DNA of 64,000 bases, from assembly GCA_011087645.1 (NCBI GenBank), contig JAALLF010000001.1, forward strand, positions 208,046-272,045, given 5' to 3'. Positions 31,500 through 42,985 of this stretch are shown piece by piece. The DNA is from Alphaproteobacteria bacterium (lineage in GTDB: Bacteria; Pseudomonadota; Alphaproteobacteria; UBA6615). The position numbers and the translations under genes are program-made. Numbering within the stretch: the first letter of the stretch is position 1; each line of letters starts with the position of its first letter. The notes beneath the pieces are model-generated. The model was not told where the DNA came from and did not search any database. It saw only the letters and a program-made list of their open reading frames with translations.

Positions 31500-32990
31500 T
31501 TAATCGAGCCGGTTGATGCCGTCGAAGGCGGCGGTCTTGTAGCACTCGGCCAAGGTCGGATAGTTGAACACGGTGTCGACGAAATAATCCACCGTACCGT
31601 CATGGGCCATAACGGCCTGGCCGATATGGATCAGCTCCGACGCACCTTCTCCGAGGATTGAAACCCCCAGAAGCTTGCGCGAATGGCGTTGGAACATCAA
31701 CTTCAACATGCCGGTCGAGTCGCCGATAATTTGACCGCGCGCGATCTCGCGATAGAACGCATGGCCGACCTCATAAGGTACGCCGTCCGCGGTGAGTTGG
31801 CCTTCATTTTTCCCGACCACCGAGATTTCGGGAATTGTATAGATGCCATACGGAAACAACTCGGCAACGCTTTCGGCTTCTGCGTCGAACGCATCGCAGG
31901 CGGCGAGCCTGCCTTGTTCCATCGACGTCGACGCCAGGCTGGGAAATCCGATGACATCGCCCACGGCGTAAATGTGGGGACACGATGTCTGGTAATTCTC
32001 ATTCACCGTGAGACGGCCGCGCTCATCGGCGGTGAGACCAGCCGCCGGCAGGTTAAGAGTGTCCGTCGCCCCGGTGCGGCCGATACTATAGAGCGCCTTC
32101 TGGGTGATGATCTGTTTACCGCTCTCCAGCTCGATGCAGACCTTCTTGCCCTTTGGTCCGTCGCAAATATCGAGAGACTCGACGTCTTCGCCGAGGCGGA
32201 AGGTCACGCGGTTCTGGCGCATCTGGTAGACCAGCGCATCGGTGATTTCGGAATCGATAAAGTCGAGCACGTTCGGGCGCTTGTCGATCACCGTCACACG
32301 CACGCCAAGGGTCGAAAACATCGTCGCATATTCGAGCCCTATGACACCGGCACCGACGATGGACAGACTATCGGGCAATTCCGTCAACTCCAATATGTCG
32401 TCGCTGGTGAAAATCTGCTGGCCATCGAACGGGATGGCGGAATCGCGGGTGGTTTCGGTCCCGACAGCGATCACAATACGATCGGCGGTGATGTCGCGCT
32501 GACCCCTGCCATCGAAAAAACTAAGCCGCACGGTGTGGTCGTCAACAAAACTGGCTTTCGCTTCCAGCACATTGACACCGTTGCGCTTTAGTTGATGGTT
32601 GGTGACGTCGATTTCGTTGCGGATCACATAATCGGCGCGGAACAGCAAATCCGCCATGGTGATATCCCGTTTCACGGCATAAGACGCACCATAGATATTG
32701 CGCTCGCGATAGCCCGACAGGTGAATAACCGCCTCGCGCAATGTCTTCGACGGGATCGTACCGGTATTGATACACACGCCGCCAACAACCGCGCGCCGTT
32801 CGATAATCGCCGCCCGCTTGCCCAGCTTGGCCGCCTGAATGGCGGCGCGTTGCCCGGCAGGTCCCGAGCCCAAGACCACCATATCGAAATCATACGCGGG
32901 CGACGGCTGCGGCGTGATATCGGATTCGGGTTTTTCGCTCCGGCTGAATTCTCCGGCAACATCGGCGACGGGAACGGCTTCAACACCCAT
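31500..32990 (-). CDS. sthA: Soluble pyridine nucleotide transhydrogenase (SthA/UdhA)
   Basis: The motif FDMVVLGSGPAGQRAA, the redox-disulfide region GGVCINTGTIPSK and a C-terminal dimerisation domain. The start codon is uncertain. Confidence 0.85.
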   Translation of the reverse strand: MGVEAVPVADVAGEFSRSEKPESDITPQPSPAYDFDMVVLGSGPAGQRAAIQAAKLGKRAAIIERRAVVGGVCINTGTIPSKTLREAVIHLSGYRERNIYGASYAVKRDITMADLLFRADYVIRNEIDVTNHQLKRNGVNVLEAKASFVDDHTVRLSFFDGRGQRDITADRIVIAVGTETTRDSAIPFDGQQIFTSDDILELTELPDSLSIVGAGVIGLEYATMFSTLGVRVTVIDKRPNVLDFIDSEITDALVYQMRQNRVTFRLGEDVESLDICDGPKGKKVCIELESGKQIITQKALYSIGRTGATDTLNLPAAGLTADERGRLTVNENYQTSCPHIYAVGDVIGFPSLASTSMEQGRLAACDAFDAEAESVAELFPYGIYTIPEISVVGKNEGQLTADGVPYEVGHAFYREIARGQIIGDSTGMLKLMFQRHSRKLLGVSILGEGASELIHIGQAVMAHDGTVDYFVDTVFNYPTLAECYKTAAFDGINRLD

Positions 32991-33142
32991 AATTTTTAGC
33001 TCACATAGTTACAGTGACCAGGTATTGGCCATTCCGCTTAACAAACTAATAACTCTCGCCGGGGCGGTGTCGGTGCGGCTGTGGCCGTAATTTAGCGTTT
33101 GCTGATTGACAGGCCCAGCAAGGGCGTTTAATCCTTGCCCAT

Positions 33143-33200
33143 CGCGCCGATTTGAGCGGCCAGCTTGCGGGCGCGTAATAAATGCAGCTAAACGGGCGAT
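33143..33200 (+). ncRNA. Candidate SAM-II-like riboswitch aptamer 1 (P1 CGCGCC/GGCGCG; loop GAUUUGAGCGGCCAGCUUGC pseudoknots with 3' GCAGCUAAAC)
   Basis: Sequence and H-type pseudoknot architecture resemble SAM-II elements upstream of met genes in Alphaproteobacteria. A second similar copy follows. Confidence 0.45.
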
Positions 33201-33208
33201 TGCATCAT

Positions 33209-33247
33209 CCGCCCAGCATGGCTGTGGCGGTTTTTTGTTGTTTTAGA
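33209..33247 (+). terminator. Intrinsic terminator (CCGCCCAGC-AUG-GCUGUGGCGG plus UUUUUUGUUGUUUU) immediately after aptamer 1
   Basis: Stem of about 9 bp followed by a long U tract, as read from the sequence. Confidence 0.6.
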
Positions 33248-33300
33248 ACCAGTTATGGAATTCCGGGCCGATCCCCCGGCGGCATAGCCGCGCACCGGAT

Positions 33301-33352
33301 CCGCGGTAATTTGATGGGCAGCTTGCGTCCGCGTCACCAATAGCTAAAGCGC
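33301..33352 (+). ncRNA. Candidate SAM-II-like riboswitch aptamer 2 (UAAUUUGAUGGGCAGCUUGCGUCCGCGUCACCAAUAGCUAAAGCGCC)
   Basis: Aligns position by position with aptamer 1 (AUUUGA..GGC.AGCUUGCG..CGCGU....AGCUAAA.). It sits directly 5' of the metZ start region. Confidence 0.45.
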
Positions 33353-33404
33353 CGTGGGACAGGTGTTCCGCGGGCCCGAATTCAGGCCTGGGAACCTATG
33401 TGTC

Positions 33405-34595
33405 ATGACCAAAGACCCCTCTAATTATCGCCAGGAGACCGCCCTGGTGCGCGGCGGCTTGCAGCGTTCGCCCAACCGCGAGACCAGCGAGGCGCTGTTT
33501 CTCAACTCCGGCTATGTGTTCGACGACGCAGCCCAAGCCGAAGCCGCGTTCAAGGGCGAGAACGACAACTACATCTATTCGCGCTACGGCAATCCCACGG
33601 TCACCATGTTCCAGGAGCGGCTGGCCGCGCTTGAGGGCGCGGAAGCCTGCTACGCCACCGCCACCGGCATGGCGGCGGTGTTCGCGTCCCTGGCCTGCCA
33701 GCTCAACGCCGGCGACCGGGTGGTGTCATCGCGCGCGGTGTTCGGCTCGTGCCACATCATCGTCGACCAGATCCTGCCGCGCTGGGGCATCGAGACCGTG
33801 TTCGTCGACGGCACCAATCTCGACGAATGGCAGGCGGCATTGTCTAAGCCGACCCACGCGGTGTTCCTGGAAAGCCCGTCCAACCCTATGCTCGATCTGG
33901 TCGATATCGCCGCGGTCAGCGAAATGGCCCACGCCGCCGGCGCCTGCGTCATCGTCGACAATGTGTTCGCCACGCCGCTTTATCAACGTCCGCTCGAGCT
34001 CGGCGCCGACATCGTGGTCTATTCCGCCACCAAACATATCGACGGCCAGGGGCGATGTCTGGGCGGCGCAGTGCTGGCCGATGCGGCTTTCATGACAGAG
34101 CGCTTTATGCCGTTCTACCGCCACACCGGCCCGGCGCTCAGCCCGTTCAATGCCTGGATTATGCTCAAGGCGTTGGAGACGCTATCGGTGCGCGTCGAGC
34201 GCCAATGCGACAACTCGCTTGACCTAGCGCGCTTCCTGCTAGCCCAACCGAAGGTCACCAAAGTCTGCCATCCGGGGCTGGAGAGCCACCCCCAAGCCGA
34301 GCTGGCGCGGCGGCAAATGTCAGGCTTCGGCAATCTGGTGACCTTCGAAGTCGAGGGCGGTAAGGCGGCGGCATTCCGGATCGCCGACGCCCTGCGGCTC
34401 ATCGATATCTCCAACAATCTCGGCGATACCAAGAGCCTGATCTGCCACCCGGCGACCACCACCCATTCCAGACTATCCGAAGAAGAGCGCAGCCAGCTCG
34501 GCATCTCACCCGGCGTCTTACGCATCTCGGTGGGCTTGGAACATCTCGACGATCTGAAGGAAGATCTGGAGCGCGCGCTCGCCGCTTTGCCCTAG
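33405..34595 (+). CDS. metZ: O-succinylhomoserine sulfhydrylase
   Basis: Full-length colinear similarity to MetZ, including a PLP-lysine motif (SATKHIDGQGR). ATG 33405 matches the length of MetZ homologs. GTG 33354 is an alternative start. Confidence 0.85.
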   Translation: MTKDPSNYRQETALVRGGLQRSPNRETSEALFLNSGYVFDDAAQAEAAFKGENDNYIYSRYGNPTVTMFQERLAALEGAEACYATATGMAAVFASLACQLNAGDRVVSSRAVFGSCHIIVDQILPRWGIETVFVDGTNLDEWQAALSKPTHAVFLESPSNPMLDLVDIAAVSEMAHAAGACVIVDNVFATPLYQRPLELGADIVVYSATKHIDGQGRCLGGAVLADAAFMTERFMPFYRHTGPALSPFNAWIMLKALETLSVRVERQCDNSLDLARFLLAQPKVTKVCHPGLESHPQAELARRQMSGFGNLVTFEVEGGKAAAFRIADALRLIDISNNLGDTKSLICHPATTTHSRLSEEERSQLGISPGVLRISVGLEHLDDLKEDLERALAALP

Positions 34596-34644: not shown

Positions 34645-35481
34645 ATGACCCTGTTAGCACCCGAAGAAACGGAAACCGGCTTCGTTGAAGCCAATCTGAG
34701 CTACACAGTCGATACCGGCGTGAAACCGGTCAACCAGACCATGGGTCCCGGCGATATGTCGCGGCGGATCGTCGGCACGGTGGAAGACCATTTGATGACC
34801 ATCCGCGATGGCCGGCCGCTGCGCGACGAATTCGCCGCCGACGTCACCGGGTTCGAGTTCGTCGACCACCAAACCGCCATGACCGATTTCTACAACGCCG
34901 ACGCGCTTAAATCGGTCTACTATCCAGAGGTCGAGGCGTTGATTAAAGCGCGCATCGGCGCGGCGCGGGTTCATATCTTCGATCACACGCTACGCTCGGG
35001 CGACGAGGCAGCCCGCAACGAAAAACTGCTCCGCGAGCCGGTGCTATCGGTGCACAACGACTATACCGAATGGTCGGGCCCACAACGGGTGCGCGAATTG
35101 ATGCCGGCCGACGAGGTCGAGGATTTATTGAGCCGCCGCTTCGCCATCGTCCAGGTATGGCGGCCGATCCGCAATCCCATCCAATCGAACCCGCTGGCGA
35201 TCTGCGACGCGCGCTCCCTGTCGGCAGACAACCTCATCGCCTCGGAGCGCCGTTACCCGGACCGGGTCGGCGAGACCTACCGGATTTCGCACGACGCTGA
35301 CCAGCGCTGGTTCTATTTTCCCAATATGACCCGCAACGAGGCCTTGCTGTTCAAGGTGTTCGATTCCGCCACCGACGGCCGCGCCCGCTTCACCCCCCAC
35401 ACCTCGTTCGACGACCCCAACACGCCGCCGGACGCACCGGCCCGCGAATCGATCGAGGTTCGCGCCCTGGTGTTTTTTTAA
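34645..35481 (+). CDS. CmcJ/NvfI-family putative oxygenase, paralog 2
   Basis: Roughly 40-45% identical by eye to the 28697 paralog. Shared blocks include HNDYTEW, VQVWRPI..PLAICDARS, RWFYFPNMTRNEALLFK and HTSFDDP. Confidence 0.65.
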   Translation: MTLLAPEETETGFVEANLSYTVDTGVKPVNQTMGPGDMSRRIVGTVEDHLMTIRDGRPLRDEFAADVTGFEFVDHQTAMTDFYNADALKSVYYPEVEALIKARIGAARVHIFDHTLRSGDEAARNEKLLREPVLSVHNDYTEWSGPQRVRELMPADEVEDLLSRRFAIVQVWRPIRNPIQSNPLAICDARSLSADNLIASERRYPDRVGETYRISHDADQRWFYFPNMTRNEALLFKVFDSATDGRARFTPHTSFDDPNTPPDAPARESIEVRALVFF

Positions 35482-39381: not shown

Positions 39382-39456
39382 TGGTGGGCGCGGTAGGGAT
39401 TGAACCTACGACCCCCTCGATGTCACCGAGGTGCTCTCCCGCTGAGCTACGCGCCC
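39382..39456 (-). tRNA. tRNA-Val (anticodon GAC)
   Basis: The reverse complement folds as a cloverleaf: acceptor GGGCGCG/CGCGCCC, D-arm GCTC-AGCGGGA-GAGC, anticodon stem CCTCG with loop GUGACAU (anticodon GAC), T-arm GTAGG-TTCAATC-CCTAC, and an encoded CCA. Confidence 0.85.
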
Positions 39457-42675: not shown

Positions 42676-42985
42676 TCGACGACCGCGGCGGGGCTACGGC
42701 GTAAAAAAAAGGCCGCGGTCGAAACCACGGCCCAAGTAAAGGGAGGAAACGCTAAATATGCGGCCTCGGCGTTAGTCCGATACCGCAACGCAGTATTTAC
42801 TTCGCATATGCAGCATTTTCAAGACTTCGGATAACTATCTGAAAATAAGAACTCTTTGTAAATTTTCCTAGTCGCGTACGAAATATAATTTCAACATTAT
42901 ATTGCATTGCACAATTTTCTTGAGCGGCGTACTTTTAATCTCCTCAAAAGCGGCTGTCTGGCACAGGAATTGCTCCACATAACCC

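Follow-up and report, generated by a model that had tools for sequence, protein, structure and literature searches.

The locus is bounded by two divergent genes. sthA occupies 31500–32990 on the minus strand (NF003585, 647 bits), and metZ, which encodes O-succinylhomoserine sulfhydrylase, occupies 33405–34595 on the plus strand (TIGR01325, 587 bits against a cut-off of 510). The genes flank a spacer of 414 nt (32991–33404). Two tandem motifs had been proposed in this spacer upstream of metZ, the presumed regulated gene, and both were recovered in place on the plus strand. The metZ start at AUG 33405 is ATG in all eight sequences of the close orthologue alignment. The open reading frame list also offers an in-frame GTG at 33354, which lies within the riboswitch platform and would extend metZ by 17 codons beyond ATG 33405. 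This codon is not conserved, as four orthologues have GCG instead and the interval carries 12–16-nt indels, and it should stay out of the metZ annotation.

Other features were recorded in the window, the whole 64-kb stretch of DNA analysed here. A CmcJ/NvfI-family oxidoreductase gene (NF041278, 317.6 bits) lies directly 3′ of metZ at 34645–35481 on the plus strand. A tRNA-Val with anticodon GAC (39382–39456, minus strand) was called by both Rfam and ARAGORN. A match to mmgR (RF00519, suhB family), an alphaproteobacterial sRNA, was found at 42696–42768 on the minus strand with 46.7 bits against an Rfam gathering threshold (GA) of 41.

For comparison, MetZ was searched in 185,579 species genomes, which gave 80 loci. 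Two-aptamer loci were identified by applying to the metZ leaders a covariance model built here (the R1 model). Two aptamers were found in the window and in 11 other loci, and one aptamer in about 45 others. Conservation of both copies upstream of metZ, a check suggested by the initial annotation, therefore extends to 11 further loci. Seven of these (L001–L007) form a close lineage with MetZ 84–91% identical to that of the window, and four (L015, L016, L028, and L053; hereafter lineage 2) are distant, with MetZ about 64–66% identical.

Both motifs are SAM-II aptamers

The core pattern TTTG-N(3-16)-GCTTGC-N(8-38)-GCTAAA has exactly two matches in the 64-kb window, at 33151–33192 and 33310–33348. 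The chance expectation is 0.01, and at least two matches occurred in 0 of 100 shuffles. Rfam cmscan was run on the whole window at the gathering threshold and then with permissive filters at E ≤ 10 on 32990–33480 (491 nt). Aptamer 1 (33134–33211, plus strand; core 33143–33198) matched SAM_alpha (RF00521) with 48.6 bits, above the GA of 36. Aptamer 2 (33293–33367, plus strand; core 33302–33353) scored 33.8 bits (E = 5.5e-6); it is 2.2 bits short of GA and was found only by the permissive search of the spacer. Two features lower its score: the L3 loop is shorter, and P1 is capped by a U·U mismatch. Automated annotation relying on the Rfam gathering score would miss copy 2 and report a single riboswitch. 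The initial annotation had left the class at SAM-II or SAM-V and named cmscan as the way to decide. RF00521 was the sole family reported for both copies, and SAM-V gave no match at E ≤ 10 in the permissive search of 32990–33480.

The R1 model gave 71.5 bits for aptamer 1 and 57.9 bits for aptamer 2. With RF00521, copy 1 of the close orthologues L001–L007 scored 42.6–51.7 bits. Copy 1 lies above GA in 10 of the 11 other tandem loci, the exception (L016) being just under at 34.6 bits. Copy 2 scored 30.3–39.5 bits in the seven close relatives, among which L003 (39.5) alone passes GA.

In aptamer 1, P1 is a 6-bp helix between 33143–48 and 33170–75, and L1 is GAUUUGAG with U33151–53. The pseudoknot joins 33157–68 to 33187–98, and U33189 corresponds to U44 of the 2QWY structure. 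In aptamer 2, P1 consists of five G-C pairs (33302–06/33329–33) with the U33307·U33328 mismatch on top, L1 is UAAUUUGAU with U33310–12, the pseudoknot joins 33317–26 to 33343–53, and U33345 corresponds to U44. In the binding pocket of 2QWY, L1 residues U10–U12 sit in the major groove of P2b, U21–A45 and U20–A46 are paired, and the unpaired U44 reads the SAM adenine from between G22–C43 and C23–G42; P1 of SAM-II is ligand-independent (PMC3303485). All the SAM-contacting nucleotides of 2QWY (U10–12, U20/21, U44, A45/46) are kept in both copies. Both copies contain the pocket equivalents AUUUGA, GCUUGC, and GCUAAA, none of which varies among the 54 distinct metZ-leader aptamers. Both copies are thus identified as SAM-II aptamers, and both would be expected to bind SAM. 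The H-type pseudoknot of the initial annotation holds, but its pairing has to be redrawn: AUUUGA is L1 and forms base triples, and the Watson-Crick pairs join the 3′ half of the loop (..GGCC-A-GCUUGC) with the tail (GCUAAA-C-GGGCG).

Covariation in homologues, on which the earlier proposal had been made to depend, was found at the level of the family but not within copy 2. Among the 54 distinct aptamers, P1 shows double-sided changes at five of its six pairs, and 96.6% of cells are paired. The variable pseudoknot tail could not be registered by MAFFT, and P2a was tested by comparing cognate with non-cognate loop–tail pairs; complementarity was complete (5/5) in 52% of the former and 18% of the latter. 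Copy 1 of L002 carries a compensatory change in P2a, G33158A together with C33197U, which converts a G–C into an A–U pair. In copy 2, P1 and P2 are fully paired (100%) and show no variation among the 12 tandem loci, hence no covariation of their own. An extended P2a register for copy 2 (A33314–U33355 onward) was considered and rejected, as it is lost in lineage 2.

Terminator, a putative promoter and the interval between the copies

A −35-like box, TTGACA, lies at 33106–33111 on the plus strand. It is invariant in seven of the eight close orthologues (TTGACT in L007) and precedes aptamer 1 at a constant spacing in each of the 12 tandem loci, with none before copy 2. A −10-like TTAATC is located at about 33128–33133, which would place the transcription start near 33140. 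Immediately 5′ of TTGACA is a further box, GTAATTTAGCGTTTGCTGA (33087–33105), which is unique in the window and contains the imperfect inverted repeat TTAGC-N4-GCTGA. It is kept in six of the eight close orthologues (absent from L004 and L005) and absent from lineage 2. Possible roles are those of an UP element or of a binding site for a transcription factor, which would add control of metZ at the promoter level.

Aptamer 1 is followed by a strong intrinsic terminator, as the initial annotation had it. The stem (33209–17/33221–30, plus strand) has a bulged U33225 and an AUG loop, the hairpin 33209–33230 reading CCGCCCAGC-AUG-GCUG(U)GGCGG; it folds at −16.2 kcal/mol and runs into the U-tract U6GUUGU4 (33231–44). 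A consensus scan for promoters and terminators called nothing in 32900–33500, and the terminator was probably missed by this simple scan because of the one-base bulge. With a bulged stem and a weak −10, promoter and terminator are argued here from folding and conservation. In eight orthologous leaders, 94.4% of cells in the terminator stem are paired, against 25–70% when the strands are slid, and the U-tract is conserved. One compensatory pair occurs, in L001; the covariation is not significant with eight near-identical sequences (124 of 500 shuffles). When the aptamer region was made unavailable, the terminator hairpin was the minimum-energy fold in seven of the eight orthologues. The terminator is also conserved in lineage 2. 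In L002 (2290–2330) the stem is degenerate (UCUCCCCGGCUUGUCUGUGGCGG) and the U-tract is kept, which may reflect an assembly error or a weakened terminator.

The tail of aptamer 1, GGGCG (33194–98), is the 3′ strand of P2a and is complementary to CGCCC (33210–14) in the 5′ arm of the terminator. For the window, L003, and L004, the fold of lowest energy is this candidate antiterminator; across the orthologues it is 94.7% paired, without covariation. When SAM binds aptamer 1, the H-type pseudoknot would lock GGGCG; the hairpin 33209–30 with its U-tract would then form, transcription would end, and an RNA of about 105 nt would be released. Without SAM, the GGGCG tail would pair with CGCCC of the terminator arm and allow read-through.

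Between the two copies we identified a hairpin, P0 (33270–33301, plus strand), that directly adjoins P1 of aptamer 2. Its outer stem pairs GAUCC 33270–74 with GGAUC 33297–33301 and its inner stem GCGGC with GCCGC. P0 is supported by covariation: pair 33271:33300 is A-U in seven sequences, G-C in two, and C-G in one, and lineage 2 has GGUCCG/CGGACC at this position. A probable role of P0 is to insulate aptamer 2 against the strands of aptamer 1, which are nearly identical to its own. We rejected an outer CCGG/CCGG stem enclosing P0, since it is supported in L002 alone.

The consensus scan of 32900–33500 found no promoter-like site between the copies. From the U-tract to aptamer 2 there are 56 nt in the window and only about 35 nt in L015, a gap that leaves no room for a second promoter. 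Judged from the sequences, this argues for both aptamers being carried on one transcript. The 56-nt interval of the window would by itself be compatible with a different arrangement, in which an internal promoter after the terminator gives separate transcripts, or in which copy 2 is a duplication relic that does not bind SAM; either way a single riboswitch would act on each mRNA. The score of copy 2 below the Rfam GA and the mismatch atop its P1 also speak for such a relic. However, the core of copy 2 is invariant in 12 loci of two lineages while the L3 loop and the flanks vary freely, which indicates purifying selection, and every SAM contact is kept. Separate transcripts are hard to reconcile with the short spacer of L015, with the absence of a promoter-like site between the copies in the scanned interval, and with the presence of TTGACA before copy 1 alone. 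We regard this as the least probable of the readings weighed here and retain two SAM-II riboswitches in series behind one promoter.

Two competing helices between aptamer 2 and the metZ start

Aptamer 2 had been described as abutting the metZ start region. It ends at C33353, 51 nt before AUG 33405, and the interval is occupied by two helices. The first, helix X, pairs a mimic of the Shine-Dalgarno (SD) sequence with an anti-SD strand (CCGUGGGAC 33352–60/GUUCCGCGG 33365–73, loop AGGU, plus strand). Its first two cytosines, C33352 and C33353, also belong to the 3′ strand of the aptamer 2 pseudoknot. Across the 12 tandem loci, all 84 cells of the seven core pairs of helix X are paired (100%), a share that falls to 57% or less when the strands are slid. 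Supporting covariation, one pair occurs as G–C or A–U and another as C–G, U–A, or U·G. Four loci (L001, L005, L006, and L007) carry an insertion of 12–16 nt with a small hairpin of its own (CCAGA...UCUGG) exactly in the loop of helix X; it occupies columns 401–412 of alignment A1, equivalent to a position between 33360 and 33361 of the window, and lengthens the helix.

The second helix is a hairpin that sequesters the SD. It pairs the anti-SD GUUCC 33365–69 with GGAAC 33391–95, has an inner stem 33371–76/33385–90 (plus strand), and is present in the minimum-energy fold. GGAAC overlaps the SD-like GGGAA 33390–94, a weak SD located 10 nt before the AUG. Pair 33365:33395 is G-C in seven loci and C-G in four, and pair 33366:33394 is U-A in eight and C-G in three, because lineage 2 uses CCUCC:GGAGG. 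Helix X and the SD hairpin share the anti-SD strand 33365–69 and are mutually exclusive, and covariation supports both. This arrangement points to a relay of SD-mimic, anti-SD, and SD as the candidate expression platform of switch 2.

Two other pairings were tried and rejected. A helix between 33297–33310 (the 5′ strand of P1) and 33365–77 is contradicted by G33370A in L001 and L002, which fits helix X and produces a mismatch in the alternative. A 'helix Y' between 33301–07 and 33351–57 was dismissed as a selected structure on account of a C·A mismatch in lineage 2 and the ligand independence of P1.

In transcripts that read through the terminator, riboswitch 2 would act on translation. With the anti-SD GUUCC held in helix X, the SD would be free and metZ translation on; with GUUCC on GGAAC 33391–95, translation would be off. 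The SAM-dependent pseudoknot would take C33352–53, weaken helix X, and thereby move the anti-SD onto the SD.

Energies calculated for lineage 2 agree with such a coupling. There the two shared G–C pairs are worth 4–6 kcal/mol, and, compared with the SD-sequestered fold, helix X lies at −1.5 to +1.0 kcal/mol with the shared pairs and at +2.7 to +6.7 kcal/mol without them, so that sequestration is favoured once they are lost. With P1 held and the pseudoknot strands blocked, L003, L016, and L053 flip to the SD-sequestered fold, and none of the loci flips in reverse. These modelled flips support the reading that switch 2 turns translation off in response to SAM. For the window and most close orthologues, the calculation prefers the SD hairpin whether aptamer 2 is free or bound (window, +9.4 kcal/mol free and +8.4 kcal/mol bound), and the 2-nt overlap is worth just 1–2 kcal/mol in this lineage. 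Switching would then be kinetic, helix X being transcribed first, or would work through another contact. Unconstrained folds are inconsistent: with a SAM mimic, helix X increases in L004, L006, and L007 to 0.42–0.86, from 0.04 or less. For the window's lineage, thermodynamic folding of switch 2, with or without constraints, did not point consistently to either ON or OFF. The direction (OFF) and the coupling of switch 2 in this genome are the least secure step of the scheme. The order suggested by the initial annotation, a transcriptional OFF switch followed by a translational one, is supported; for the second switch we infer the OFF direction.

One candidate for another contact is a long-range pairing of the aptamer 2 loop, (U)GGGC 33315–19, with the invariant GCCC(G) 33374–78. 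Without SAM, this pairing would open the inner stem of the SD hairpin; SAM would recapture GGGC and the SD hairpin would close, giving the same OFF logic. GGGCCC 33372–77 is invariant in 12 of 12 tandem loci though its partner in the SD hairpin differs between the lineages, and GCCC 33374–77 is complementary to the equally invariant loop GGGC 33316–19. Such a contact would also explain why the 2-nt overlap with helix X shifts the energy so little in the window's lineage. Invariance of both strands makes covariation uninformative, however, and the pairing is a pseudoknot, beyond scoring by the folding tools used here. It also leaves the covariation of helix X to be explained, although the two mechanisms could coexist. 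We give this contact a small chance of being the route by which switch 2 works.

An opposite sign for aptamer 2, SAM-ON or 'incoherent', is suggested by the occurrence of helix Y when the window and several orthologues are folded to minimum energy without constraints. In such a scheme, CCGCGGU 33301–07 would pair with GCCGUGG 33351–57 without SAM and the SD would be sequestered; SAM would restore P1 and P2, free 33354–60 for helix X, and open the SD, giving basal MetZ translation from transcripts that escape riboswitch 1. The rise of helix X with the SAM mimic in the three loci above points the same way, and an incoherent mode of SAM-II regulation is known from S. meliloti (PMC9373788). But P1 of SAM-II is ligand-independent and is transcribed first, and none of the loci switches toward ON once it is kept formed. 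In lineage 2 the alternative helix carries its mismatch (CCGCGG vs CCACGG) while helix X is perfectly kept, and activation by SAM would be biologically odd for a methionine-synthesis gene. We consider this scheme very improbable. The broader proposition that aptamer 2 is something other than a simple second OFF switch, whether translation is activated by SAM (the SD-mimic being released from the P1 5′ strand) or the signal passes through the loop GGGC:GCCC, also appears quite improbable. If it were true, the response of the tandem would not be a steeper OFF curve; MetZ might, for instance, be assured at a basal level or produced in a band-pass manner. The tandem would then represent an old, conserved two-input device common to two alphaproteobacterial lineages. 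The SAM-OFF relay remains the preferred reading of switch 2.

Conservation of the tandem unit

Each copy has features of its own that are common to both lineages. Copy 1 has P1 CGCGCC/GGCGCG and the terminator. Copy 2 has P1 CGCGG/CCGCG, the loop GGGCAGCUUGC, and the tail AAAGCGCC, followed by helix X. Since these copy-specific features are shared, the unit is either old or was transferred whole and is not the product of a recent local duplication.

The genes downstream of the unit differ in lineage 2. In L015 (1933–2447), and also in L016, L028, and L053, the riboswitch pair is followed by a 30-codon ORF, a gene for a 144-aa rhodanese-like protein, and then metZ; the stop of the ORF overlaps the start of the rhodanese-like gene (ATGA). 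From this gene order, the unit in lineage 2 possibly controls the small ORF and the rhodanese-like gene ahead of metZ, as a SAM-controlled sulfurtransferase-metZ operon in which the ORF may be a leader peptide.

Discussion

The metZ leader contains two aptamers of identified class, a terminator after the first, two competing helices after the second, and a unit of these parts conserved as a whole. The most probable explanation, in which we have good confidence, is that two SAM-II riboswitches stand in series behind one promoter as a 'bi-mechanism' tandem that acts on transcription and then on translation. This scheme would have both copies bind SAM on a single transcript, the antiterminator form in its absence, and switch 2 respond to it by closing the SD. 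Together, the two switches would shut methionine synthesis off more tightly and more steeply at high SAM.

If so, a single methionine-synthesis gene would here be under the control of a clean natural two-stage SAM sensor that acts on transcription before translation. The unit is conserved in two lineages of uncultured Alphaproteobacteria, and its second stage has unusually well-supported competing helices. It offers a convenient system for testing whether tandem riboswitches sharpen a dose response, and it is also suited to testing how a pseudoknot aptamer controls an SD about 40 nt away.

Tandems of this kind are already known. Sherlock et al. (2022, RNA Biol 19:1059, PMC9481103) catalogue 44 examples of tandem SAM-II/SAM-II riboswitches, some of them with a terminator followed by control of the RBS, and group them with the SAM-II/SAM-V bi-mechanism tandems of Pelagibacter. 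The initial annotation, which called such pairs uncommon and mainly marine, overstated their novelty in view of that catalogue. The locus fits this description, with two SAM-II aptamers in one leader, and is no new element class; the present lineage is possibly among the 44. Tandem SAM-II arrangements are not mentioned in PMC4239095 or PMC12452182.

The tandem of Candidatus Pelagibacter ubique (PMC9481103, PMC11508383) likewise begins with a SAM-II aptamer and its terminator and continues with a SAM switch that acts on translation, and the same benefit, control of transcription and then of translation, has been proposed for it. In contrast to that tandem, the second aptamer here is SAM-II by Rfam, and the SD lies outside the pseudoknot, 37 nt downstream, and would be reached through the relay.

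Among single-aptamer leaders, the closest counterpart is metZ of Sinorhizobium meliloti, where a SAM-II aptamer lies upstream of a Rho-independent terminator and a short RNA is produced (Scheuer et al., 2022, PMC9373788). A transcriptional OFF design has been predicted for that riboswitch, the terminated product being the sRNA RZ (PMC9373788). Riboswitch 1 is the standard SAM-II transcriptional OFF design. Switch 2 has a parallel in S. meliloti metA, whose SAM-II element acts 'at a distance' on a start codon lying tens of nucleotides further downstream (PMC9373788). The S. meliloti leaders carry one aptamer each (PMC9373788), whereas two stand in series here, and the distant start would here be linked by an anti-SD relay and not by an SD inside the aptamer. 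Relative to the text of Sherlock et al. (2022, PMC9481103) that was available, which does not dissect individual loci, the present analysis adds the anatomy of the second platform, a relay of SD-mimic, anti-SD, and SD described from covariation in both of its helices, together with the covarying hairpin P0 and the conservation of the whole unit across two lineages.
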